Below are positions 8,974 to 24,769 of a stretch of DNA of 64,000 bases, piece after piece; within the stretch, counting starts at the first letter, position 1, and every line of letters begins with the position of its first letter. The DNA is from an uncultured Sulfurimonas sp. (lineage in GTDB: Bacteria; Campylobacterota; Campylobacteria; Campylobacterales; Sulfurimonadaceae). Both the position numbers and the translations under genes were made by a program. A model generated the notes under the pieces. That model was not told where the DNA came from and ran no database searches. It saw only the letters and a program-made list of their open reading frames with translations. Location of the stretch: positions 152 through 64,151 of the forward strand of contig CAZJRG010000001.1 in assembly GCA_964548435.1 (NCBI GenBank), given 5' to 3'.

Positions 8974-10064
8974 CTAAGCTCATTTATGGCTTCGCAGAGA
9001 TCTCTAAGTGTCTCTGGTGTCTCACCCAAACGTGCGATGAGACGTATGATTGCACTTGGAACTGTAGGCTGTCTTATAGCACCTACATGCATCCCATTTT
9101 GCAAGAGTTGCGTTTGTATCTCCAAAACCCGTCTATTATCCCCAATATGAATCGGTGCGATGAGACCATCCATCTCTACACCCAAAATCTCCTCAACCAA
9201 CCTCCTGCGTTTTGCTATCTCCTCTTGAAGCATTGAAGCATTTTGCAAAATATACTCAAGTGACTTGTGTGCGGCAAGAGTGTCATACAAAGAGAGCGAT
9301 GTCGCATAGATGATCGGTTTTGCTCGGTTGAGCAGGTACTCTATGATATGTGAAGAGGCAAGAATAAACGCACCAAAACTTCCATAAGCTTTCCCGAGTG
9401 TGCCCATTTTAATATGGTGTGGTTCTACCTTAATACCATAATGATCAAAGATACCCATAAGCCGTCTGCCTACTACACCACTAGAGTGTGCCTCATCGAC
9501 AATCAGTAGTGCGTGTGCCTCTGCAACCACGTCAAAGATCTCTTTTGCACAGAGATCTCCATCCATGGAGTAGATCCCCTCAACTGCGACTATCTTGCGT
9601 TTTGCACTACTCTTTTGCAGCATCAAACGCAGTGACTCTGCATCATTGTGTTTAAAAAAGAGGACATTTTTATGTGCAAGTTGTGAAGCCAAAACCCCTG
9701 ACGCATGGTAGAGTTCATCCATAAAAAGGGTGTCACCTTTACGCACAAGTGCATCTATGAGTGCTATGTTTGCATTAAACCCGCTTCCAAGAACTACACC
9801 ATCCTCAAAGCCATTTGCTTCACAAAGTGCTCGTTCCAAATCATGATGTGCTTGATGGTAGCCGCTCACAAGCATGGAAGCCTTTGAGGCATAGAGATTT
9901 TTACTTAAGAGCTCTTTAGATGCTGCCTCATGTATGCTCTTGTTATGGGCAAGTCCGAGATAATCATTGGATGCAAAGTCATGGAGTCTCTCATCATAGA
10001 GATGGCGCCTTCGATAGCGAGAGGCTTTCTGTAGCGCATCAAGCTCTTTTTGGTAGAAGTTCAT
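8970..10064 (-). CDS. bioF: 8-amino-7-oxononanoate synthase (alpha-oxoamine synthase family)
   Basis: SNDYLGLA, IYSMDGD and GTLGKAYGSFGA (PLP lysine) blocks, 364 aa. A KBL-type paralogue cannot be excluded without a search. Confidence 0.8.
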   Translation of the reverse strand: MNFYQKELDALQKASRYRRRHLYDERLHDFASNDYLGLAHNKSIHEAASKELLSKNLYASKASMLVSGYHQAHHDLERALCEANGFEDGVVLGSGFNANIALIDALVRKGDTLFMDELYHASGVLASQLAHKNVLFFKHNDAESLRLMLQKSSAKRKIVAVEGIYSMDGDLCAKEIFDVVAEAHALLIVDEAHSSGVVGRRLMGIFDHYGIKVEPHHIKMGTLGKAYGSFGAFILASSHIIEYLLNRAKPIIYATSLSLYDTLAAHKSLEYILQNASMLQEEIAKRRRLVEEILGVEMDGLIAPIHIGDNRRVLEIQTQLLQNGMHVGAIRQPTVPSAIIRLIARLGETPETLRDLCEAINELR

Positions 10065-11014
10065 CCAAGGACAACCTTGTTACGTCCCGTCTCTTTTGCC
10101 TTATAAAGCACCGCATCAGCACGTTTGACAAGCATCTTATCTTCATCACCCTTTTCATACTGCACAAGTCCAATACTTACAGTTATAGGGGTGATGCCTT
10201 TGCTTGATTCGACCATCTCTCTGAGTTTTTGTGCCAAAATATATGCTTTATCTTTGGTTGTTAGCGGAAGCAAAATTGCAAACTCTTCACCTCCAATGCG
10301 TGCAAACACATCCCCATCTCTGAGACTGTTTTTAATGAGATTGCTAAAATCAATGAGCACTTTATCTCCTACATCGTGTCCAAATCTATCATTGATTTTT
10401 TTAAAGAAGTCTATATCTAAAAGCATAAGTGAAAAAGGGGTGTTGTAGCGTTCACTCAGCGTTATATGCTCACTGAGTTTTTGATCAAAAAATCTTCTAT
10501 TGCCCACATTTGTGAGTGCGTCATTGAGCGTGAGCAGCATGAGTGCTTTTTTGGCTTTGACCTGCTCTGAGATATCAGTGAGAATCACCGCACTCACACC
10601 TCTTGCAATGTCAATCTCCGAGGCAGAGACCAAAAAGTAGTAGAGCTCGCCCTCTATATTTATTTTTGCTTTGTGTTTTGTATTTTCGTGATTAATGAGA
10701 TACTGCACCCACTGCCCATAATCATCCATAGCCTCTAAATACTCATCCTCTTTTTCAAAAAAGTCACAAATACATCTGTGTTTTTTGGAGAACTCTTCGA
10801 GTGTGGTAAAAGCTCTGAAGTAGCGGAAAAAAGTTCTATTAACCTCTAAAATTCCTTTGGGTCCTATAAGCATGACAATATTTGTCGAGTTGTCTATTAC
10901 TCTTTTGTAGTATTTTTTTTGGTGTGTGTACTCTTTATAGAGCAGATAAAGCACCACAGCTCCAAAAGCAAGTGCTAGAAAAAAGTAAATGTCTATCTCA
11001 AACGCAACTTGCAT
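10061..11014 (-). CDS. Membrane-anchored diguanylate cyclase (PAS-like sensor + GGDEF)
   Basis: N-terminal TM helix. C-terminal GGDEF domain with RIGGEEFAILL, DIDFFKKINDRFGH and an RADAVLYKAK..GRN end. Confidence 0.9.
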   Translation of the reverse strand: MQVAFEIDIYFFLALAFGAVVLYLLYKEYTHQKKYYKRVIDNSTNIVMLIGPKGILEVNRTFFRYFRAFTTLEEFSKKHRCICDFFEKEDEYLEAMDDYGQWVQYLINHENTKHKAKINIEGELYYFLVSASEIDIARGVSAVILTDISEQVKAKKALMLLTLNDALTNVGNRRFFDQKLSEHITLSERYNTPFSLMLLDIDFFKKINDRFGHDVGDKVLIDFSNLIKNSLRDGDVFARIGGEEFAILLPLTTKDKAYILAQKLREMVESSKGITPITVSIGLVQYEKGDEDKMLVKRADAVLYKAKETGRNKVVLG

Positions 11015-11567
11015 CTCTATCCTTTACGAAGTTTTGCAGTACCTCAACACAAAGCCCCATCGCTGTGCTCTCATACCCTCTTACCTCTTTGATATAGGGC
11101 TTACAAAATCCCTCTACCATACATGCACCCGCCTTGCCGCGCCACTCACCACTTGCCAAATAGCACTCTAGATCTTCTAAATCAAATGGATTAAAAATAT
11201 AATCCGTCTGCGAAATATCGACTATTTTTCGATTTTTACTCTCATAAATCATCGCAGTAATGATACTTGTCATACTTGCACTCTGTGTAAGTAAAATATT
11301 ACGAGCATCACTCTCGCTCTTTGCCTTACGCAGTATCTGATTTTGACTACTCACGACTGTATCAGCCACAAGCAGAGGCATATCTTCACAGCCAAACGCA
11401 GCTCTGTTTGCGTTATATTTTCCTAAAGTTGCTTGGTAAACAAAGTTTTTTGCAGATGTGGCAATGATGCTATCCTCATCGAACCCTACACTCTCTTGCA
11501 CAAATGCGATACCTGCATTTTGTAGCAGAAGTGCACGAGTCTCTGAGGCAGAAGCGAGTCGTAACAC
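10998..11567 (-). CDS. maf: Maf-like nucleoside triphosphate pyrophosphatase
   Basis: 189 aa. LASASETRALLL N-terminus and overall Maf-like length and pattern. GTG start. 17-nt overlap with the GGDEF gene. Confidence 0.75.
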   Translation of the reverse strand: MLRLASASETRALLLQNAGIAFVQESVGFDEDSIIATSAKNFVYQATLGKYNANRAAFGCEDMPLLVADTVVSSQNQILRKAKSESDARNILLTQSASMTSIITAMIYESKNRKIVDISQTDYIFNPFDLEDLECYLASGEWRGKAGACMVEGFCKPYIKEVRGYESTAMGLCVEVLQNFVKDRDASCV

Positions 11568-11568
11568 T

Positions 11569-12051
11569 TTAGAGTCCGCTTGAGAGAAGTGATCCCAAAA
11601 AGATGGCTATTGTGCCCAGAATGATATTAAGCGGGACCATATATTTTCCAATCATCTCAAGAGAGAGTTTCGCACCCACCATATCGCCAGCTTCTAAAAA
11701 CTTCACTGCACGGTTGCGTCTGCGTATCATCAAAAAGAGATTGATAGCCATAATGCTCCAGATGGCCTCTTTAGCATGTGCAAGTGGAGCAAACTCACTC
11801 TGTGAAAGTGCATACCCTTTTATCATGATAACCGCCGTCACAAGCAAAATAACAACAAAAGGAACCACAATAGTAAAGAGCCCTTTGAGTGCTAACGCGA
11901 TATGCTCTAAACGCTTCGCAGGAGACTCAATGCGAACAAATGAAGGGTGTGCTGCAAAACGCATTGCGATCATCCCTCCTACCCAAACTACTGCCGAAAA
12001 GACATGAAAAAAGATGATAACACTCTTATACTCTGCAAAAAACTCAGCCAT
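11569..12051 (-). CDS. Integral membrane protein, 4 TM (CopD/HemJ-like topology), function unknown
   Basis: 160 aa with four hydrophobic segments. FFHVFSAVVWVGGMIAM first helix with a conserved-looking His/Trp. Translationally coupled to alaS (TAATG overlap at 12051). Confidence 0.6.
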   Translation of the reverse strand: MAEFFAEYKSVIIFFHVFSAVVWVGGMIAMRFAAHPSFVRIESPAKRLEHIALALKGLFTIVVPFVVILLVTAVIMIKGYALSQSEFAPLAHAKEAIWSIMAINLFLMIRRRNRAVKFLEAGDMVGAKLSLEMIGKYMVPLNIILGTIAIFLGSLLSSGL

Positions 12052-16837: not shown

Positions 16838-17173
16838 TCAGAGTAAACTATTCTCTTTTAAAATATCTAAAATGACTCTCTCGTCAATATTTTTTAGTTC
16901 ACTCTTTGAATAGATACTCATAAGGTAGAGGTTATTTTCTTTGTCTATAAAATAATAGATGACTCTAAAACCACCGCTTTTTCCAGTTAAATTCGAGCTG
17001 TTTGCGACTCTTATCTTGTAGCATCCATTCCCAAGTTCAATTCCCGATTTTGGGTTTTGATACAACTCATCTTTTAATGATTTAAGATCACTTGGAAGCT
17101 GCTTATATTTTTTAAAAAGCCTCTTAACATCTTTTTCAAAACTTTTAAGTGTCTTAATCTCTAAGTTCATCAA
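16838..17173 (-). CDS. Type II toxin, RelE/ParE superfamily
   Basis: 111 aa. F.KD.KRL....Q...L....L..NP..G..LG.G.YKIRV......GKSGGFRVIYY pattern typical of RelE/HigB-like mRNA interferases. Overlaps the upstream small RHH gene. Confidence 0.8.
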   Translation of the reverse strand: MMNLEIKTLKSFEKDVKRLFKKYKQLPSDLKSLKDELYQNPKSGIELGNGCYKIRVANSSNLTGKSGGFRVIYYFIDKENNLYLMSIYSKSELKNIDERVILDILKENSLL

Positions 17174-17426
17174 TTAACTCATCAAGCGACTTCATAGAAG
17201 CACTATCTTTCTTCTCGAGTGATCTCTTTAACTCCTTAGCCGCAGCATCAAAATCACTGTAAAACAGATTCGCTTTTTGCTCATTCAAGTATGATGTAAT
17301 CGCTTCAATAATGACATCTGTTCGGTTAATCGAAAACTGTTGCGTCAAAGCATCAATCTCTTCAACCAAATATTTTGGTAATCGCAGACCGACTTGTTGC
17401 TTTTCTAATTGAGAAATTGAGTGCAT
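17154..17426 (-). CDS. Ribbon-helix-helix (CopG-like) antitoxin
   Basis: 90 aa. VGLRLPKYLVEEIDALTQQFSINRTDVIIEAITSYL fits a beta-alpha-alpha RHH N-terminus. Acidic C-terminal tail. 20-nt overlap with the toxin gene. Confidence 0.75.
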   Translation of the reverse strand: MHSISQLEKQQVGLRLPKYLVEEIDALTQQFSINRTDVIIEAITSYLNEQKANLFYSDFDAAAKELKRSLEKKDSASMKSLDELIDELRD

Positions 17427-17504: not shown

Positions 17505-18920
17505 TTAGCAGAGTATCACACTCTTTATCTCTGTCATCTCTTCAATGGCAAAACGCGGGCCTTCGCGTCCTACACCGCTGAGTTTTACACCCCCATAAGG
17601 CTGAATGTCAAAACGCAGGGTTGGCATATCGTTGATGACTATTCCGCCCGCATCAAGCTCGCTAATGGCACGCTGCGTTAAACGCAGGTCGTTTGTGAAG
17701 AGTGAAAACTGGAGTCCGTAGGGAGAGTTGTTCATGCGCGGCAACGCGTCATCAAAGCTCTCTACTTTTACAAGGCTCACTATCGGGGCAAAAACCTCTT
17801 CGCAGACAATTGCCATATCGTCGGTAACATTTGCCATGACACAGGGGTGAAACATTCTCCCCTCGCGCTTAGGTTCTAAAAGTGCTACAGCCCCCTCTTC
17901 TATGGCAGACTCTACCCACCCCATGGCACGCTCAGCTGCGGCATCATCGATGAGTGGTCCCATGAAAGTATCATCCTCATAGGGTGAGCCGACTTTGAGC
18001 TTACGCGTCTCCTCTGCCATCTTCTGGGCAAATACATCGTAAATCTCTGCGTTGACATAGATGCGTTGTAGCGAGATGCAGACCTGACCGGAGTTTACAA
18101 ATGCACCCAAGGCACAACGAGCCGCAGCAAGGTCTAAATCCGCACTCTTGTCTATGTAGGTCGCTGCGTTTCCGCCAAGCTCAAGGCTCACTTTTTTGAT
18201 GCCAGCACTCTTGGTGATGATCTTTCCAACAGGAACACTTCCCGTAAAAGAGATGACACGGGGAATATCTGAAGTGATAAGCGCACTTCCAACCTCTGCA
18301 TCGCCATAGACAACACTCAGTGCATCTTTGATGGCAAACTCGCTCTCTACAAAAAGCTTCGCAAACTTGTAAGCAGTAAGCGGTGCTTCAGGTGTCGGCT
18401 TGAGCACTACTGCATTTCCTGCGACAAGAGCGGGAGCGAGTTTGTGCGCTATTAAGTTAAGTGGAAAGTTAAAAGGGGTGATGGCAACCACCACACCAGC
18501 AGGCTCACGCATAAAAAACGCCGTCGTCTTTTTGCCACTCGCCATCGCGTCGGTGTTGATGGTCTCGCCATGCATGGTGCGCATCGTCTCAGCCGAGAGT
18601 GTGAGCGTCTCGATACAGCGCTCTACCTCAATGCGTGCATAAGTGATGGGTTTTCCTACCTCATCGGTGAGTGTTTTTGCTATATCTTCTTTGTTTTCTC
18701 GCAGCTTTTTTGCCACATCAAGCATCCATGCGCAGCGCTGAGAGAGGGTAGAAGCTTTTGCTGCTTTAGTGGCGCCTTGAGCGATTTTTAGAGCCTCTTT
18801 TGCATCCTCAGCGGTGCATATTGGAGCAGTTGAGACGACCTCAAGCGAATATGGACTTCTTCTGTGGCTTAGCGCCTCACGACTCTGCTCTTTTGAGCCA
18901 AAAAATATCTTTGCTTGCAT
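17505..18920 (-). CDS. NAD(P)+-dependent aldehyde dehydrogenase
   Basis: 471 aa. FTGSVPVGK, VSLELGGNA and FVNSGQVCISLQRIYV (catalytic Cys) blocks. Substrate not assignable by eye. Confidence 0.9.
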   Translation of the reverse strand: MQAKIFFGSKEQSREALSHRRSPYSLEVVSTAPICTAEDAKEALKIAQGATKAAKASTLSQRCAWMLDVAKKLRENKEDIAKTLTDEVGKPITYARIEVERCIETLTLSAETMRTMHGETINTDAMASGKKTTAFFMREPAGVVVAITPFNFPLNLIAHKLAPALVAGNAVVLKPTPEAPLTAYKFAKLFVESEFAIKDALSVVYGDAEVGSALITSDIPRVISFTGSVPVGKIITKSAGIKKVSLELGGNAATYIDKSADLDLAAARCALGAFVNSGQVCISLQRIYVNAEIYDVFAQKMAEETRKLKVGSPYEDDTFMGPLIDDAAAERAMGWVESAIEEGAVALLEPKREGRMFHPCVMANVTDDMAIVCEEVFAPIVSLVKVESFDDALPRMNNSPYGLQFSLFTNDLRLTQRAISELDAGGIVINDMPTLRFDIQPYGGVKLSGVGREGPRFAIEEMTEIKSVILC

Positions 18921-18947: not shown

Positions 18948-20690
18948 TTATAGCGTCTCTTCAAAATTTTTGATGTAACGACTCTTTTTTGACTCTTTCA
19001 TACGGGAGTTGTCAGCGATGATAAACCCCTCCACTACTCCATGAAGTTTCTCATTGATACTAAAATCAAAAAAGCGAAACGCCCCCTCTTCGTAGAGCTC
19101 TGCATACTGTTTAAAGAGTGTTGGCACTACACAACCAAGCTCTTTAAGGTAGCGTTTGAGCTCCACAAAACCATCTTTGTAACTCTTATACTTAAAGAGC
19201 TCATCAAACTCTGTTTTATCGTCATAGCTCATATAGTAAGGCTCTTTGGCACTCATCATCTTTGACTCACACGAGAAGTGGTGTGAGTAGAAGTAGACGA
19301 GAGCTGCGACAGCTTTTCTAGGGGTGTCTGCGTTTATGGTGACAATCCCGTAGGTGTAGATGATACGGGGGTTGTTTGCCAAGTAAGCTCCCACACCTTG
19401 CCAGAGATTGTCAAGCGCACGACTTCCCCAGTAACGCGGCTGCACAAAGCTGCGACCAAGCTCGACGGAGTTTTGCGTGTAGGTGGCGAACTCCTCGCTA
19501 AAGTCGCACTGGTTATAGGTGTAGAGCCCCTCCATACCGCGATGCGCAATGATGTCGTTCACCTCACCAATGCGATACGCTCCGACGATCTCGAGCTCAT
19601 CTTCATCCCAGAGCACAAGATGCTTATAGTAGTTGTCATAGAGATCGTTGTCTTTGGCACCACCCGTTCCGCCCCCTATGGCGCGAAAAGAGATCTCGCG
19701 TACACGTCCTAGCTCTTGCATCAAAAATGGAGCATGCTGCGACTCGGCGAGCACTATGAGCTTGCCATCTTGAGTGCGTCCAAGTTTTGTTGCTGCTGCT
19801 ATCTCTTTTTTGAGGAGGATTTTGTTGCTCGCTGGCGTGATGGTCACCTCTGTTTTTAAGAACCCTTTTTGCTGAGTGCCAAGCGTGTAGAGATGTCGAT
19901 AAAAAAGCTCCATGTACTCCTGCAGGGTTCTACGCTCATCACTAAATGCACGCAGCGGAATAACACGCCCGATGTGAAACTTCAAATCCTGGCGTTTTGA
20001 AGCAGTCGCAAACTCGTGTGGCAGCATCATAGCACTCAAACGCAGCGGCAAAAAGAGCGAGAGAAAGTAGAAAAGTTTAGAGTTTCTTGCCTCTATCTTG
20101 ATGGGCAAAATCGGTGCTGTGTTTTTGCGTGCAAAACGCAAGAAGCTAGGCTGCCATGCAAAATCTTTTATACCTCCAAAACGCCATCTACTAACAATTC
20201 CCGCTGGAAAAATGATGATCGCCTCCTCATTTTGCAGTGCAGTGTCGATGGCTTTGAGAGACTTTTTAGTGATAGCGCCCGTGATGTTGTCCACGGGAAT
20301 GATAATCTCACTGGCTTGTGTGACACTCATAAACATCCCATTGACCATCAGTTTTACACGCTTGTCCTCTCTGGCATTTGCGATGAGCTCATAGAGGGCA
20401 AAAGCGTCAGAACCACCTGTAATGTGGTTTGCCACAACGATGAGTCTCCCAGTGGAGGGGATGTTTTTGAGCTCTTTTGGCTTAAGTGTGTAGGTGATGC
20501 CAAGATGCTCGACCATACTCTCGACAAACTCCAAACCACTAAGGTAGTGGTTTTTGGCATAAATCCCATTGTAAAGCTCTTCATGAAAGAGTCCCTTCAT
20601 AAAACGCAGCAGAGGCTCTCTTACAAACGCAGGGGCATAGTGCATAAACCGAGGAAAACGGCTTAAAAATATCTTCTCAATCTCAATCAT
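18948..20690 (-). CDS. Bifunctional acyltransferase, OlsF-like (PlsC-type acyltransferase + OlsB-like N-acyltransferase); putative aminolipid synthase
   Basis: The N-terminal half has GRLIVVANHITGGSDAF (H-x5-D acyltransferase box) and FPAG. The C-terminal half has RVREISFRAIGGGTGGAKDNDLYDNYYKHLVLWDEDELEIVGAYRIG, the OlsB/hemolysin-like GNAT pattern. 580 aa. Confidence 0.7.
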   Translation of the reverse strand: MIEIEKIFLSRFPRFMHYAPAFVREPLLRFMKGLFHEELYNGIYAKNHYLSGLEFVESMVEHLGITYTLKPKELKNIPSTGRLIVVANHITGGSDAFALYELIANAREDKRVKLMVNGMFMSVTQASEIIIPVDNITGAITKKSLKAIDTALQNEEAIIIFPAGIVSRWRFGGIKDFAWQPSFLRFARKNTAPILPIKIEARNSKLFYFLSLFLPLRLSAMMLPHEFATASKRQDLKFHIGRVIPLRAFSDERRTLQEYMELFYRHLYTLGTQQKGFLKTEVTITPASNKILLKKEIAAATKLGRTQDGKLIVLAESQHAPFLMQELGRVREISFRAIGGGTGGAKDNDLYDNYYKHLVLWDEDELEIVGAYRIGEVNDIIAHRGMEGLYTYNQCDFSEEFATYTQNSVELGRSFVQPRYWGSRALDNLWQGVGAYLANNPRIIYTYGIVTINADTPRKAVAALVYFYSHHFSCESKMMSAKEPYYMSYDDKTEFDELFKYKSYKDGFVELKRYLKELGCVVPTLFKQYAELYEEGAFRFFDFSINEKLHGVVEGFIIADNSRMKESKKSRYIKNFEETL

Positions 20691-20705
20691 CTCATAAACT
20701 CCATA

Positions 20706-23000
20706 CTAAATCAGTTTGCTTGGCTCTGCACGATCGATGCGACTAAGCACTGCAGGGAGCAAAAGCAGATCTACTGCAAGTGCTAAAGAGAGTGCTATGG
20801 CACACAAAAGTCCAAAGTGCGCATTGAGCATAAACTGTGAAAACGAAAAAACAAAAAATGCACAGCAGAGGGTGAGAGTGGTAAAGAGCATCGCTCCACC
20901 TCCATAGCGCATCACATACAGAAGCGATGCCTCCACTGATTTTGCCTCTCTCCTTGCCTCTTGATACTTGAGTAAAAAGTGAATGGTATCATCCACCGCA
21001 ATTCCCAAAATAATCGCTCCCGAGATCGCTATGCCTATATCTACACGCATCCCAAGCCACCCCATAACACCAAGCACAAGAAGGATTGGCAAGAGGTTTG
21101 GGATGAGAAAAACAGGAATCATCCGTAGATTTTTAAATACAAACGCCATCACCACACAGATAACTCCCAGAGCAATGAGTGTCGAGTTTACAAGTGTCTC
21201 TGTCACATCTTGCTGCATCTTGGCAAACATGGCACTCTGTCCAGTAACCTCGACGCCATAAGGTGTCTTACTCCACCAGTTTTCTATCCAAGCAATCATC
21301 TCAAGATCTTTAGAGGTATCGCTCACGTTCATCGAGAGCGATATGCGTAGCCTACGCTCGTCTATGTCCATCTTATCATTTATCTCCATGCCTTGTGGAA
21401 GCGAGAGTGAGTAGAGCAGAAGATACTGTGCGATGAGATTTTTATCACTTGGGACACTCTTACTTGATGCAAGAAGCTCGTTAAAACGCTTCACAACATC
21501 TACAAGCGAAGCGGCATGTCTGGCATCATCAAAACGTGCTAAAAACTCCTGCGAAAAACGCTCCACACACTTCATAAACGCAGGCTCTTTGATGCCATCG
21601 TTGTGAAGCGAATCAGCGACCACTTCATAAGTAAGCGGACCTGTGAGCTCCTCTTCTATAAACTGCACACTCTTGACAAACGCTACATCTTCGCGGAAAT
21701 ATCGCACGGCGTTTGAGTCTATCTGCAACTGTGTTATGCCAAGCGCTATGCCAAACGCCATGAGTGAAAAGAGTGCGATAATGCGTCGCTCGTTTGCTAA
21801 GACAAAAGCGACGTATCGCGCAAGAAAACGACCTGTTAAGCCACTGCTTTTTTCTGCTGGGCTTGGTGTGATATTTAGAGCCAAAATGCTTAAAAGTGCT
21901 GGAACAAAAGTGATGGTGAGCACAAACGCAATGATTGCACCCGTAGCCGTAGCGATGCCAAGCGTTGCAACGGGAAGAATGTTTGAGATGCCAAGAGAGG
22001 CAAAGCCTACAGTCGTAGTGAGTGAGGTTAAAAAGAGTGGCAGAAAATTTTTACGCACACTGGAAAAAATAGCCTCTTGACTACTCATGCCACCCCTGCG
22101 CTCGAGGATATAGACCCAGATAAGATGCATCGCATCGGCGATACCAATGGCAATGATAAAGACAGGCATATTTGCGGTGAAGTTGTTAAACTTATACCCA
22201 AACAAAACCTGCAGCGCCATAACGATAGTAAAAGTAAAGATCACCACTAAAAGTGTCATCGACACCGCACTCATACGACGCAGCACAAAGTAAAGAACCG
22301 CCATGGCTATGACAATACTCAAAGGCGTAAATGTACTTACATCGTGGAGTGCAAGCGAGGCAAAAGTCTGGTTGACCACAGGTCCACCCGCAAGATGAAA
22401 AACATACCCACTGGAGTGCTCCTCTTGAAGATAGCCCTCTAATGCTTCTAAGATGGTGCGAGACGCACCTATGGTTCGTCCCCCTTTTGGAGTGATGCGA
22501 GCCACTATCATGGTGGTTTTTGCATCTTCACTGATGATGCGACCTAGAAGCATATCCTCTTGGAGTGCGATGCGTTTTTTCTCGTCAAGCTGCGCCGATG
22601 AGAGTCTGCTTACATCTTCAATGAAACTCTCCACAATGACATCATCTAAAGCACCCGCCTCTACATGCACATACTGATAGTTTGTAATGGAGTCTACCCT
22701 TGCGATATAGGGTGTTTGCCAAAGTTTTTGTGTAAGACGCTCCACTACACCAAGTGCCTTAGGAGTGAAAATCCCCTCTTCATCACGAAAGAGAATGATC
22801 ATGGAGTCATCATTACCAAAACGCTCCTTAAAGAGGTCATAGCGTTTGAGTGTCTGTGACTCGGGTGCAAACCAGATTCTGTACGAACCATCAAACGCAG
22901 CGTCTTTAAGGAGATATGCGCAGACAAACGCGATAAGCGGTGTTGCAACCACGATGAACCAGCGAAACTTTATGAGTAACCCAACAAATCTCTCCATCAA
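20706..23000 (-). CDS. RND-superfamily MMPL/HpnN-like exporter (COG1033 type)
   Basis: 764 aa. Two repeats, each a large soluble loop followed by a ~5-6-helix hydrophobic bundle. GIADAMHLIW and GIAVDDTIHFLLKYQEAR motifs, one after each bundle start. Confidence 0.85.
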   Translation of the reverse strand: MMERFVGLLIKFRWFIVVATPLIAFVCAYLLKDAAFDGSYRIWFAPESQTLKRYDLFKERFGNDDSMIILFRDEEGIFTPKALGVVERLTQKLWQTPYIARVDSITNYQYVHVEAGALDDVIVESFIEDVSRLSSAQLDEKKRIALQEDMLLGRIISEDAKTTMIVARITPKGGRTIGASRTILEALEGYLQEEHSSGYVFHLAGGPVVNQTFASLALHDVSTFTPLSIVIAMAVLYFVLRRMSAVSMTLLVVIFTFTIVMALQVLFGYKFNNFTANMPVFIIAIGIADAMHLIWVYILERRGGMSSQEAIFSSVRKNFLPLFLTSLTTTVGFASLGISNILPVATLGIATATGAIIAFVLTITFVPALLSILALNITPSPAEKSSGLTGRFLARYVAFVLANERRIIALFSLMAFGIALGITQLQIDSNAVRYFREDVAFVKSVQFIEEELTGPLTYEVVADSLHNDGIKEPAFMKCVERFSQEFLARFDDARHAASLVDVVKRFNELLASSKSVPSDKNLIAQYLLLYSLSLPQGMEINDKMDIDERRLRISLSMNVSDTSKDLEMIAWIENWWSKTPYGVEVTGQSAMFAKMQQDVTETLVNSTLIALGVICVVMAFVFKNLRMIPVFLIPNLLPILLVLGVMGWLGMRVDIGIAISGAIILGIAVDDTIHFLLKYQEARREAKSVEASLLYVMRYGGGAMLFTTLTLCCAFFVFSFSQFMLNAHFGLLCAIALSLALAVDLLLLPAVLSRIDRAEPSKLI

Positions 23001-24658
23001 AATGCAGCTCCCAAACGCAGACTTAAACGCTCATGACGCCCCATGAGTCTAAACGCAGTCATCTCGCTTAGAGATGGCTCAATCACTCTGTAGTCAAAAT
23101 CAAGCTTCAAAAAGTCCCAAAATCGTCCGCTATACTCAAGGTAGTAAAGCTCCTCGCCATAAGCCATATCGGCTACCACACCTGCACTCACGCTACTCTC
23201 TTGAGTATCATCGAGATCAAGACGCGCACCCACGAAAAGATCATTCTCAAAGATTTCAAAAAGCTCTATATCACTGCGTTTACTCTTGTCAAAAGTGGTG
23301 TAGCTGTAGTATTCGCCCAGTAAAGAGAGCTCTCCTAAATCAAACACCCTCCCAACACCCTGCTCCACACCAAAACCTATGTGCATGTAGTCTGAGATGA
23401 TTTTATCTTCTAAGACATCGCTGTAGAGTGCTTCGAGTTTATAGAGCGTACTTCCTACTACAAGGGTGTTGTAGGTGCTGATTTTATTTACAAGATAGGC
23501 ATTCTCTTGTGTGATGCTCTGAGTGAGATCACCAAGGAGTGTAGCAGAGTAGTAACGCTGCGAATCGTAGCCGTTTTGAACTATAAAAGCATAATCAAGC
23601 GCGACATCTCCATCTAAGCTTCCCGAGTAGGTGAGATAGAGTGTTGGACGGTATGAACCCGCTTCGCTTAGAAGCTCCTCTTTATAGATGTAAGGAAGTC
23701 CGCCACGCTCTTTTGGAAAGTAGTAGTAGACATAAGGGTATGCCGCCATGGAGCGCTCTTGTTCATAAAACTTTACAATGAAACTGAGTGCTCCACTCTG
23801 TGTAAAGTGGGAGTACGAAGCGTTATAAACGCCAAGCTTATCCATAGAAAAAGGGTCATCTCTGAGCTCTACAGGATTAAACCCATCCGTAATGTTTCGC
23901 GCTTCCAAAGCTCCCCAAAAACGGATGCTTTTACCCACAAGTATCTGATCATTCTCAAAATCATACGCACCATAAAGCTCATCAAGACGCACAAAAGTAC
24001 GCTCATTTTTCTCCTTTGTCGCCACATCGGAGTAGTCAGCTTGTCCTTTGAACTTTGTAGCAAGTGTAAGTGCGTCTCTCTCATAACGCAGACCAAGAGT
24101 GCTCATGGCACTTAAGTTATAGAGATTTTTTTCTTTTGGAGCTTGAAAGTAGTTCTGAGCTACGAGGGCTACCTCCGCACTTACACTTACATCATCTAAA
24201 AAGCTCGACTCTGTTGGCAGTAGTGTTTCACTCTCTTTTTGAGCACTCAAAGGAGTTTGCAAACCATAAGAAGATACTACTTCTTGGACTGTTTTTGCAG
24301 GTTTTATGCTCTTTTTTTGCTTTGGTGGCGCTATCTTTTTTTGTTGATGTTGCACTCTGCTTTTTGGCTTAAAGCGTGTTTTATATGTACTTACAAGTGC
24401 CGCATCTGGATAAAAATAGCTCAGATCCTCATGAGCATTTTTAGCATCTTTATAGTTTTCAAAACAGCCACATCGCACTGCGTTTATCTTACCAAATGAG
24501 ATAAGTTGGCACTGCTTTGGGTAGTCCTGTGCGTCAAAATCATAAGTAGAATTTTTCTTAAAAACAAAACTAGTTAGCTGAACGGAGTAGCAAGTCTGTG
24601 AAGATGAAGCCCAGAGAAAACTGCTACACACAAGCAAAATCAAGAGCTTTAACACCAT
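22997..24658 (-). CDS. Secreted SPOR-like domain fused to a predicted outer-membrane beta-barrel
   Basis: Signal peptide MVLKLLILLVCSSFLWA/SSS. YSVQLTSF...NAVRCGCFENYKDAKNAHEDL..YPDAALVS fits the SPOR pattern. A Lys/Pro-rich linker follows, then ~400 aa of alternating Tyr/Gly-rich strands ending in ...RLSLRLGAAF (C-terminal aromatic). Start moved to ATG 24658 (AGGTG 8 nt upstream). Confidence 0.6.
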   Translation of the reverse strand: MVLKLLILLVCSSFLWASSSQTCYSVQLTSFVFKKNSTYDFDAQDYPKQCQLISFGKINAVRCGCFENYKDAKNAHEDLSYFYPDAALVSTYKTRFKPKSRVQHQQKKIAPPKQKKSIKPAKTVQEVVSSYGLQTPLSAQKESETLLPTESSFLDDVSVSAEVALVAQNYFQAPKEKNLYNLSAMSTLGLRYERDALTLATKFKGQADYSDVATKEKNERTFVRLDELYGAYDFENDQILVGKSIRFWGALEARNITDGFNPVELRDDPFSMDKLGVYNASYSHFTQSGALSFIVKFYEQERSMAAYPYVYYYFPKERGGLPYIYKEELLSEAGSYRPTLYLTYSGSLDGDVALDYAFIVQNGYDSQRYYSATLLGDLTQSITQENAYLVNKISTYNTLVVGSTLYKLEALYSDVLEDKIISDYMHIGFGVEQGVGRVFDLGELSLLGEYYSYTTFDKSKRSDIELFEIFENDLFVGARLDLDDTQESSVSAGVVADMAYGEELYYLEYSGRFWDFLKLDFDYRVIEPSLSEMTAFRLMGRHERLSLRLGAAF

Positions 24659-24769
24659 CGAACACACCTGTATCTATATAATTTTTTTTTATACTAACAC
24701 AGATAAAAATTAAAATGTGATAAAAAAGTAATAAAATTGAAAAAAATTAAAAATGTGTAACCAAAATGT

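Follow-up and report, generated by a model that had tools for sequence, protein, structure and literature searches.

We analysed a 64,000-nucleotide (nt) stretch of an uncultured Sulfurimonas sp. genome (assembly GCA_964548435.1, contig CAZJRG010000001.1, positions 152 to 64,151 of the forward strand; referred to here as the window), in which three minus-strand genes packed head to tail encode a putative outer-membrane barrel protein, an inner-membrane pump of the superfamily called resistance-nodulation-division (RND) and an acyltransferase of the aminolipid synthase family OlsF, designated OlsF1. The open reading frames (22997-24667/24658, 20706-23000 and 18948-20690, all on the minus strand) were recovered as described in a first-pass annotation of the sequence, which had proposed this synthase-exporter-outer-membrane protein operon as a candidate route dedicated to aminolipid export. 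The gene set and its linkage held up under comparison with a sample of 101 Sulfurimonadaceae genomes. The dedicated role is doubtful, as the barrel and the pump belong to a generic exporter module to which OlsF1, which has diverged from its paralogue, the main OlsF of the family, is joined in a single clade. The features of the locus are as follows.

22997..24658, minus strand: outer-membrane protein, 553 amino acids (aa) from the ATG at 24658, with a signal peptide, a SPOR-like domain, a disordered linker and a barrel (predicted)
24374..24601, minus strand: putative SPOR-like N-terminal domain of this protein (residues ~20-95), with four invariant Cys
24215..24361, minus strand: low-complexity Lys/Pro/Gln-rich linker (residues ~100-148; predicted local distance difference test score, pLDDT, <50)
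23000..24211, minus strand: predicted outer-membrane beta-barrel (residues ~150-553), 18-strand class, probable remote DUF1302 relative
20706..22997, minus strand: HAE3/MMPL-type RND inner-membrane transporter, 763 aa from the ATG at 22997 (764 aa from the TTG at 23000)
18948..20690, minus strand: OlsF1, bifunctional O-/N-acyltransferase, 580 aa, diverged paralogue of the family's OlsF
19884..20627, minus strand: N-terminal PlsC-type O-acyltransferase domain of OlsF1 (residues 22-269; PF19576 78 bits, PF01553 37 bits)
18969..19835, minus strand: C-terminal OlsB/GlsB-like N-acyltransferase domain of OlsF1 (residues 286-574; PF13444 77 bits, GlsB model 183 bits)
17505..18920, minus strand: aldehyde dehydrogenase (PF00171, 479 bits)

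The barrel and pump genes meet at GCATTTTGATGGAG (likewise TTTTGATGG). They do overlap, as had been reported, but probably by 1 nt (TGATG, with the pump starting at the ATG at 22997) and not by the 4 nt that a TTG start at 23000 would give, because the alignment of the pump with its homologues begins at residue 2. For the barrel gene there is an alternative GTG start at 24667, and AGGTG stands ahead of the ATG at 24658. The 15-nt gap noted previously between the pump and the acyltransferase genes is present and carries GGAG 8 nt 5′ of the ATG. A scan for promoters and terminators returned the same counts as in shuffled sequence and therefore does not inform the limits of the operon.

Against the OlsF equivalog model NF052615, OlsF1 scores 621.8 bits over residues 1-574 of 580, a marginal pass of the cut-off of 620, and the two-domain OlsF architecture described earlier is evident. 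The two motifs quoted in support of that architecture lie where they had been placed, with the PlsC-type box (VVANHITGGSDAF) in the N-terminal half of the protein and the OlsB-like N-acyltransferase motif (FRAIGGGTGGAKDNDLYDNYYKHLVLWDEDELEIVGAYRIG) in the C-terminal half. In the alignment with the validated Vibrio cholerae OlsF proteins, ANHITGGSD corresponds to the His/Asp box and IFPAG to the FPAG box, and the NH..G..D, FPAG, VGAYR and ELGRS motifs are common to OlsF1 and both V. cholerae enzymes. The six full-length OlsF1 sequences all keep their catalytic motifs intact, and in the C-terminal domain OlsF1 retains most of the residues that do not vary among known OlsF proteins. The same six sequences share five fixed replacements, namely E340G (the Glu of FRxVGEG to Gly), S453N, D546N, F549L and D554E, at positions where the reference residue is invariant in 14 sequences of OlsF2, the family's main OlsF, and in the two V. 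cholerae proteins; the loss of two acidic residues (E340 and D546) could bear on the choice of head group. A sequence search of OlsF1 against the Protein Data Bank (PDB) gave no match. Four OlsF1 orthologues, 710-750 aa long, have a GGDEF domain at the C-terminus (L021:12131-14263, plus strand; L029:642-2894, minus strand; and those in L022 and L023), in which the GGDEF motif itself is replaced by YDTQKL, WSDMSF, YSDKEF and WNKKQF. The OlsF1 of the window has no such tail. A degenerate GGDEF tail of this kind could represent a receptor or regulatory domain fused to the lipid synthase.

The pump matches the Pfam MMPL family at 133 bits (cut-off 20.5), and its best NCBIfam match is the HAE3 model TIGR00921 at 212 bits, which is below that model's cut-off of 351.9. 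Its hydropathy profile predicts 12 transmembrane (TM) segments, arranged as TM1, a loop of ~190 aa, TM2-6, TM7, a loop of ~177 aa and TM8-12. The branch of the window's pump is long (1.35, the median being 0.19), but the pump looks intact: of 211 columns without variation among 31 orthologues it retains 198, with D289/H292 and D670/D671/H674 among them. The earlier description of an MMPL/HpnN-type RND protein is thus upheld as regards MMPL/HAE3, by the Pfam match, the predicted 12 TM segments, the two loops of ~180 aa and the charged residues; an HpnN identity was rejected, as the scores with NF052374 (73 bits versus 1100) and TIGR03480 (113 bits versus 752) fall far under the cut-offs. The best PDB sequence matches of the pump are MmpL4 and MmpL5.

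No Pfam or NCBIfam family matched the barrel protein, and Pfam gave no DUF1302 hit even at E 10. An AlphaFold model built from 40 homologues (mean pLDDT 80) comprises a signal peptide, a beta-alpha-beta-beta-alpha-beta domain (residues ~20-95), a disordered linker (100-148) and a large barrel (150-553). With VIA-align the barrel model matched OccAB3 (Z 24.3), OccD2 (23.8), the Campylobacter jejuni major outer-membrane protein MOMP (23.6) and AlgE (22.7), and Foldseek agrees, so that the outer-membrane barrel of the first-pass annotation is, by structure model, of the 18-strand type. An hhalign comparison with a DUF1302 alignment from this genus gave a probability of 94.8% (E 5e-8, 235 columns) and included a G.xI.FWG...ITD..NP motif within the aligned region; because of this profile-profile match we regard the barrel as a probable remote DUF1302 relative. 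The SPOR domain claimed for the N-terminus stands as a fold resemblance and fails as a Pfam sequence match: PF05036 (SPOR) gave no hit at E up to 10, the sole hit being a weak CsiV match (E 0.025). When the domain was folded alone (pLDDT 80), only five PDB entries matched with Z ≥5, four of them SPOR domains (CwlC 6.3, DedD 5.8, RlpA 5.3 and DamX 5.1, with 66-78 residues aligned), and such Z values can mean a common fold only. On the strength of the model, the term SPOR-like is reasonable but not proven. Homologues of the barrel protein occur in 55 of the 101 family genomes, and the named ones are from Sulfurimonas. Within the 40 loci that we examined around barrel homologues in these genomes, the SPOR-like extension is confined to barrels of OlsF1-linked loci. 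Many long, SPOR-bearing barrel homologues were also seen in metagenomes.

OlsF lies directly behind the pump in only 7 of the 101 genomes, which are those of the window, three more of its genus and three of a second genus. One metagenome contig, SWCD01011597.1, is ordered as the window is: YraN (UPF0102, the gene 5′ of the barrel gene in the window), barrel, pump, OlsF and aldehyde dehydrogenase. The arrangement is therefore not peculiar to a single strain, and the survey of gene neighbourhoods separates two levels of conservation, the barrel-pump pairing being widely conserved whereas the OlsF linkage is confined to one clade. Among the linked loci the barrel proteins are 41-52% identical, the pumps 54-66% and the OlsF1 proteins 59-80%, and the flanking genes differ. 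No OlsF1 was found away from the pump, and the 40 loci include no SPOR-bearing barrel without OlsF1. The linked pumps form one clade that contains only OlsF1-linked members (Shimodaira-Hasegawa-like approximate likelihood ratio test, SH-aLRT, 100), and the OlsF1 sequences form one clade on a long stem (SH-aLRT 100) that is nested inside the OlsF2 diversity of the family. The linked set fits one origin, in which a duplication within the family was followed by divergence and by spread as a unit. A metagenome scan with OlsF1 retrieved 46 OlsF2-type and two OlsF1-type loci, and so adds one independent OlsF1 locus rather than a survey.

In practically every one of the 40 loci that is sufficiently long the barrel gene adjoins the pump gene, and a LolA_like protein of ~250 aa (PF17131, 210 bits) is encoded directly 5′ of the barrel in 35 of them. 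The barrel-pump module is present in ~45 of the 101 Sulfurimonadaceae genomes. Since the combination of LolA-like protein, barrel and pump is conserved across families, we take the conserved unit to be a three-part envelope exporter of the AmeABCD kind. The LolA-like component, which was overlooked in the first-pass annotation, is missing from the operon of the window and has an orthologue elsewhere in the same genome (contig C47:8611-9357; L062, minus strand) with 59% identity to the S. autotrophica-like copy. The closest metagenome relative likewise has no LolA-like gene within 10 kb, and of the eight linked loci six have the gene as a neighbour. On C47 the LolA-like gene lies 13 nt behind a dCache-GGDEF-EAL gene (9371-11701, minus strand), the contig ending 230 nt upstream of the latter; chance adjacency is not negligible here because the genome has ~36 GGDEF-domain genes. 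Contig C55 of the same genome holds a canonical second set in the order HAE3 RND, LolA_like, DUF1302 (L005:38-2149 and 2151-2933; L081:1207-2646).

Every linked genome also carries a second OlsF, the OlsF2 introduced above, which is 38-45% identical to OlsF1 and occurs in 75 of 100 family genomes. The OlsF2 of the window's genome is encoded on contig C45 (L003:8811-10529, plus strand), scores 789 bits with the OlsF model and is 41% identical to OlsF1. Its gene is preceded by pstB, phoU and a PhoR-like kinase gene and followed by an EAL-CBS-GGDEF gene, and the pst-pho context is repeated in three other genomes of the window's genus. A pstB-phoU-PhoR neighbourhood is the classical phosphate-starvation setting for ornithine lipid.

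OlsF1 has the same PlsC-type plus OlsB-like two-domain build as the OlsF proteins of Serratia proteamaculans, V. cholerae (VC0489 and VCA0646) and Flavobacterium johnsoniae, and the two OlsF paralogues in the one V. cholerae genome are a precedent for OlsF1 and OlsF2 (PMC12186959). It differs from the known OlsF proteins in its marginal score, its long branch, the Glu to Gly exchange in FRxVGEG and, in four relatives, the degenerate GGDEF tail. VCA0646 closes an operon of four genes (PMC12186959; 10.1101/2024.09.23.614608), and we retrieved this second-OlsF locus from V. cholerae ATCC 14035 via a published primer sequence. Its partners vca0647-0649 (L064:5580-7325), listed as of "unknown function" in 10.1101/2024.09.23.614608, encode YHS-domain, TANGO2-like and weakly DinB-like proteins. 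As these are not an RND set, the VCA0646 operon was rejected as a parallel to OlsF1, whose operon includes an RND exporter.

For the exporter, counterparts are found in AmeABCD of Castellaniella defragrans, an HAE3 exporter that works with a LolA-superfamily protein and a DUF1302 barrel and effluxes monoterpenes and Nile Red (PMC6394551), and in a DUF1302/DUF1329/BNR/RND co-fitness set of Pseudomonas (10.1101/2020.07.04.188060). With both of these the module shares an HAE3-type RND protein, a LolA-superfamily protein and a putatively DUF1302-type barrel. In contrast to these systems, its barrel is shorter, remotely DUF1302-like and here SPOR-bearing, its LolA-like protein is of the PF17131 type with ~250 aa, a lipid synthase is attached, and the LolA-superfamily partner is not encoded in the cassette of the window. 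No Ycf48/BNR-like protein (AmeC) was seen in the loci examined, the genome not having been searched for this family. HpnN, like the pump, belongs to the HAE3 branch of the RND superfamily, and the two are weakly similar (PDB 6wu0 and 5khn, E 1e-9 to 2e-8). HpnN moves an envelope lipid outward. The pump scores far below the cut-offs of the HpnN models, as stated above. In addition, HpnN works without periplasmic or outer-membrane partners (PMC6394551). The mycobacterial MmpL systems resemble the locus in that an RND-superfamily exporter gene adjoins an enzyme gene, the MmpL cargo being made by that enzyme; the pump, however, is only distantly similar to MmpL, in the TM domain only, and belongs to a different subfamily, in a diderm system that includes a barrel and a LolA-like carrier. 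Genome G063 (contig C61; L051:88-6994) has a divergent barrel-pump pair, followed after 35 nt by a gene for a 949-aa acyl carrier protein/fatty-acyl-AMP-ligase/PlsC-acyltransferase protein. We considered it as a second coupling of a lipid acyltransferase to the module and rejected it as a one-off, a pump being near 0 of the 9 orthologues examined in other genomes.

In many diderm bacteria, ornithine lipids and related aminolipids are plentiful in the outer membrane. Two recent aminolipid reviews (PMC12971839, from 2026; a 2024 ISME J review) mention no transport or export step and describe no exporter, which agrees with the statement in the first-pass annotation that the route of these lipids to the outer membrane has yet to be settled. 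Neither an aminolipid exporter nor the combination of OlsF with the module is described in the literature that we searched, although the individual parts are of known kinds. We assign a probability of about 45% to the reading that one Sulfurimonadaceae clade recruited a generic hydrophobe exporter for the lipid made by a dedicated, diverged synthase, OlsF1. The sequences show which genes are present, what their domains are, that the linkage is conserved and that it arose once; the transport steps, the substrate and the head group are inferred. On the cytoplasm-facing (inner) side of the inner membrane, OlsF1 would first attach a 3-hydroxy fatty acid to an amino acid by N-acylation and then O-acylate the product. 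That amino acid may be ornithine or lysine; the loss in OlsF1 of a Glu that is invariant elsewhere makes another one possible. The co-translated, proton-driven RND pump would pull the lipid out of the inner membrane's outer leaflet, the LolA-like protein would ferry it across the periplasm, and the barrel, tethered to peptidoglycan via its SPOR-like domain, would insert the lipid into the outer membrane or release it. Favouring this reading are the tight packing of the genes and a gene order kept across ~40% protein divergence with scrambled flanks, together with the facts that OlsF1 was never found apart from the pump and that the SPOR-like innovation of the barrel arose with the linkage. It is further favoured by the invariant charged residues kept by the pump and the motifs of validated OlsF proteins kept by OlsF1, and by a module that spans the envelope, resembles AmeABCD and has a LolA-like orthologue in the genome. 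The enrichment of ornithine lipids in outer membranes (PMC12971839) also counts for it, as do the lack of a described exporter in the reviews searched and the single clades that the linked pumps and the OlsF1 sequences each form.

Several observations weigh against export of the OlsF1 lipid by the linked pump. The module has no adjacent OlsF in 33 of the 40 loci and is present in 10 genomes with no OlsF match at all; G024, G039, G013 and G072, at 99-100% completeness, contain the module with no OlsF found. The set of TetR, LolA-like, barrel and pump genes occurs in two other Campylobacterales families, again without OlsF, and the TetR gene that lies divergently upstream in 21 of the 40 loci suggests regulation of a xenobiotic or efflux type. 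Conversely, many genomes have OlsF2 and lack the module, OlsF2 was never next to the module in the family genomes surveyed, and a pump, barrel or LolA-like gene was near 0 of the 46 OlsF2-type metagenome loci. The word "dedicated" is doubtful because the barrel-pump pair is a widespread module, normally with a LolA-like gene and usually without OlsF. Because the module occurs without OlsF and the main OlsF never adjoins it, the link to a substrate is argued from gene order in a single clade. Moreover, all linked loci derive from one evolutionary event, so the co-occurrence counts are not independent. The OlsF1 gene of G006 (G006:C77:41623-43278, L024) has one in-frame TAG, which marks either a pseudogene or a sequencing error, beside an intact barrel and pump, and no OlsF-pump fusion was found among proteins of 1016-2900 aa, which is weak evidence. 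The export reading, built as it is on gene order, is a testable lead and not a demonstrated route, and it does not explain the outer-membrane delivery of the family's main ornithine lipid or of aminolipids generally. Its value is limited in that the linkage is a lineage-specific add-on of single origin, that the exporter has other or broader jobs elsewhere and that the case for transport is indirect.

The main rival, possible but on the whole unlikely, is that synthase and exporter form a co-regulated stress module with no substrate link, in which the set would export some other hydrophobe and OlsF1, made in those same conditions, would only remodel the membranes, much as the envelope is hardened by a lipid that is phosphate-free or charge-neutral. 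The predominance of modules without OlsF, also in genomes where no OlsF was found, and the TetR genes that adjoin 21 of them are in keeping with such co-regulation, as are the efflux of monoterpenes and Nile Red by AmeABCD (PMC6394551), the repeated association of ornithine lipids with stress resistance (PMC12971839) and the fact that a separate stress induces the second OlsF of V. cholerae (PMC12186959). It fits less well with an OlsF1 that never occurs apart from the pump, with linked pumps that form their own clade, with a SPOR-like barrel innovation that arose with the linkage, or with spacing in the style of translational coupling, which exceeds the needs of a shared promoter. We also consider it rather unlikely that OlsF1, through a head-group pocket altered by the loss of Glu and Asp, makes an aminolipid other than the ornithine lipid that OlsF2, the housekeeping copy linked to the phosphate regulon, produces, and that in relatives the machinery is gated via a degenerate GGDEF receptor domain fused to the synthase.

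Sulfurimonas-type bacteria oxidise sulfur, and as the host is of this type, the OlsF1 product or its mono-acylated intermediate might leave the cell via the barrel as a surfactant or signal, for example in the wetting of hydrophobic elemental sulfur, instead of becoming part of the outer membrane. The membership of the barrel in the 18-strand channel class (AlgE, Occ, MOMP) is compatible with secretion, HAE3/DUF1302 systems are believed to discharge their substrates from the cell (PMC6394551), and an invariant Glu and an Asp have been lost specifically in this clade, a hint that the product has changed. Secretion is nonetheless improbable in our judgement, being pure conjecture, with no secreted aminolipid from this group in the papers searched, and the SPOR-like tether and the LolA-like carrier fit membrane insertion equally well. 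Finally, a duplicated olsF may have come to lie behind the pump in a single event and since then have simply accompanied it through inheritance or transfer, without function and perhaps decaying. The single origin, the score of OlsF1 relative to OlsF2 (621.8 versus 789 bits), the in-frame stop in G006, the loss or degeneration of the GGDEF tail and the long branch of the window's pump would all accord with mere adjacency, which we nevertheless hold to be very improbable given a linkage kept across ~40% protein divergence with scrambled flanks, catalytic motifs intact in six of six full-length OlsF1 sequences and spacing that is still tight.

A synthase tied to a full set of envelope-spanning parts would be a concrete handle on aminolipid transport. 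If export of the OlsF1 lipid is correct, that lipid would be the first natural cargo for the LolA-like/DUF1302-like/HAE3 exporter class, which is widespread and whose few characterised members are known only by efflux or fitness phenotypes. The linked genomes provide a clean experimental case because they carry the unlinked OlsF2 as an internal control.

The fourth gene of the cluster, that for the aldehyde dehydrogenase, begins 27 nt after OlsF1, with an AGGGAG Shine-Dalgarno sequence in the spacer and no terminator between the two, and is probably co-transcribed, closing the transcription unit in this sublineage. Its position is unchanged in both closest relatives, SWCD01011597.1 (88% identity) and L110 (87%), and is not present at the remaining OlsF1 loci. 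Directly after it lies a toxin-antitoxin pair (16838-17426) reported in the first-pass annotation; in the closest metagenome relative a dCache-GGDEF gene occupies this position, which suggests a local rearrangement.

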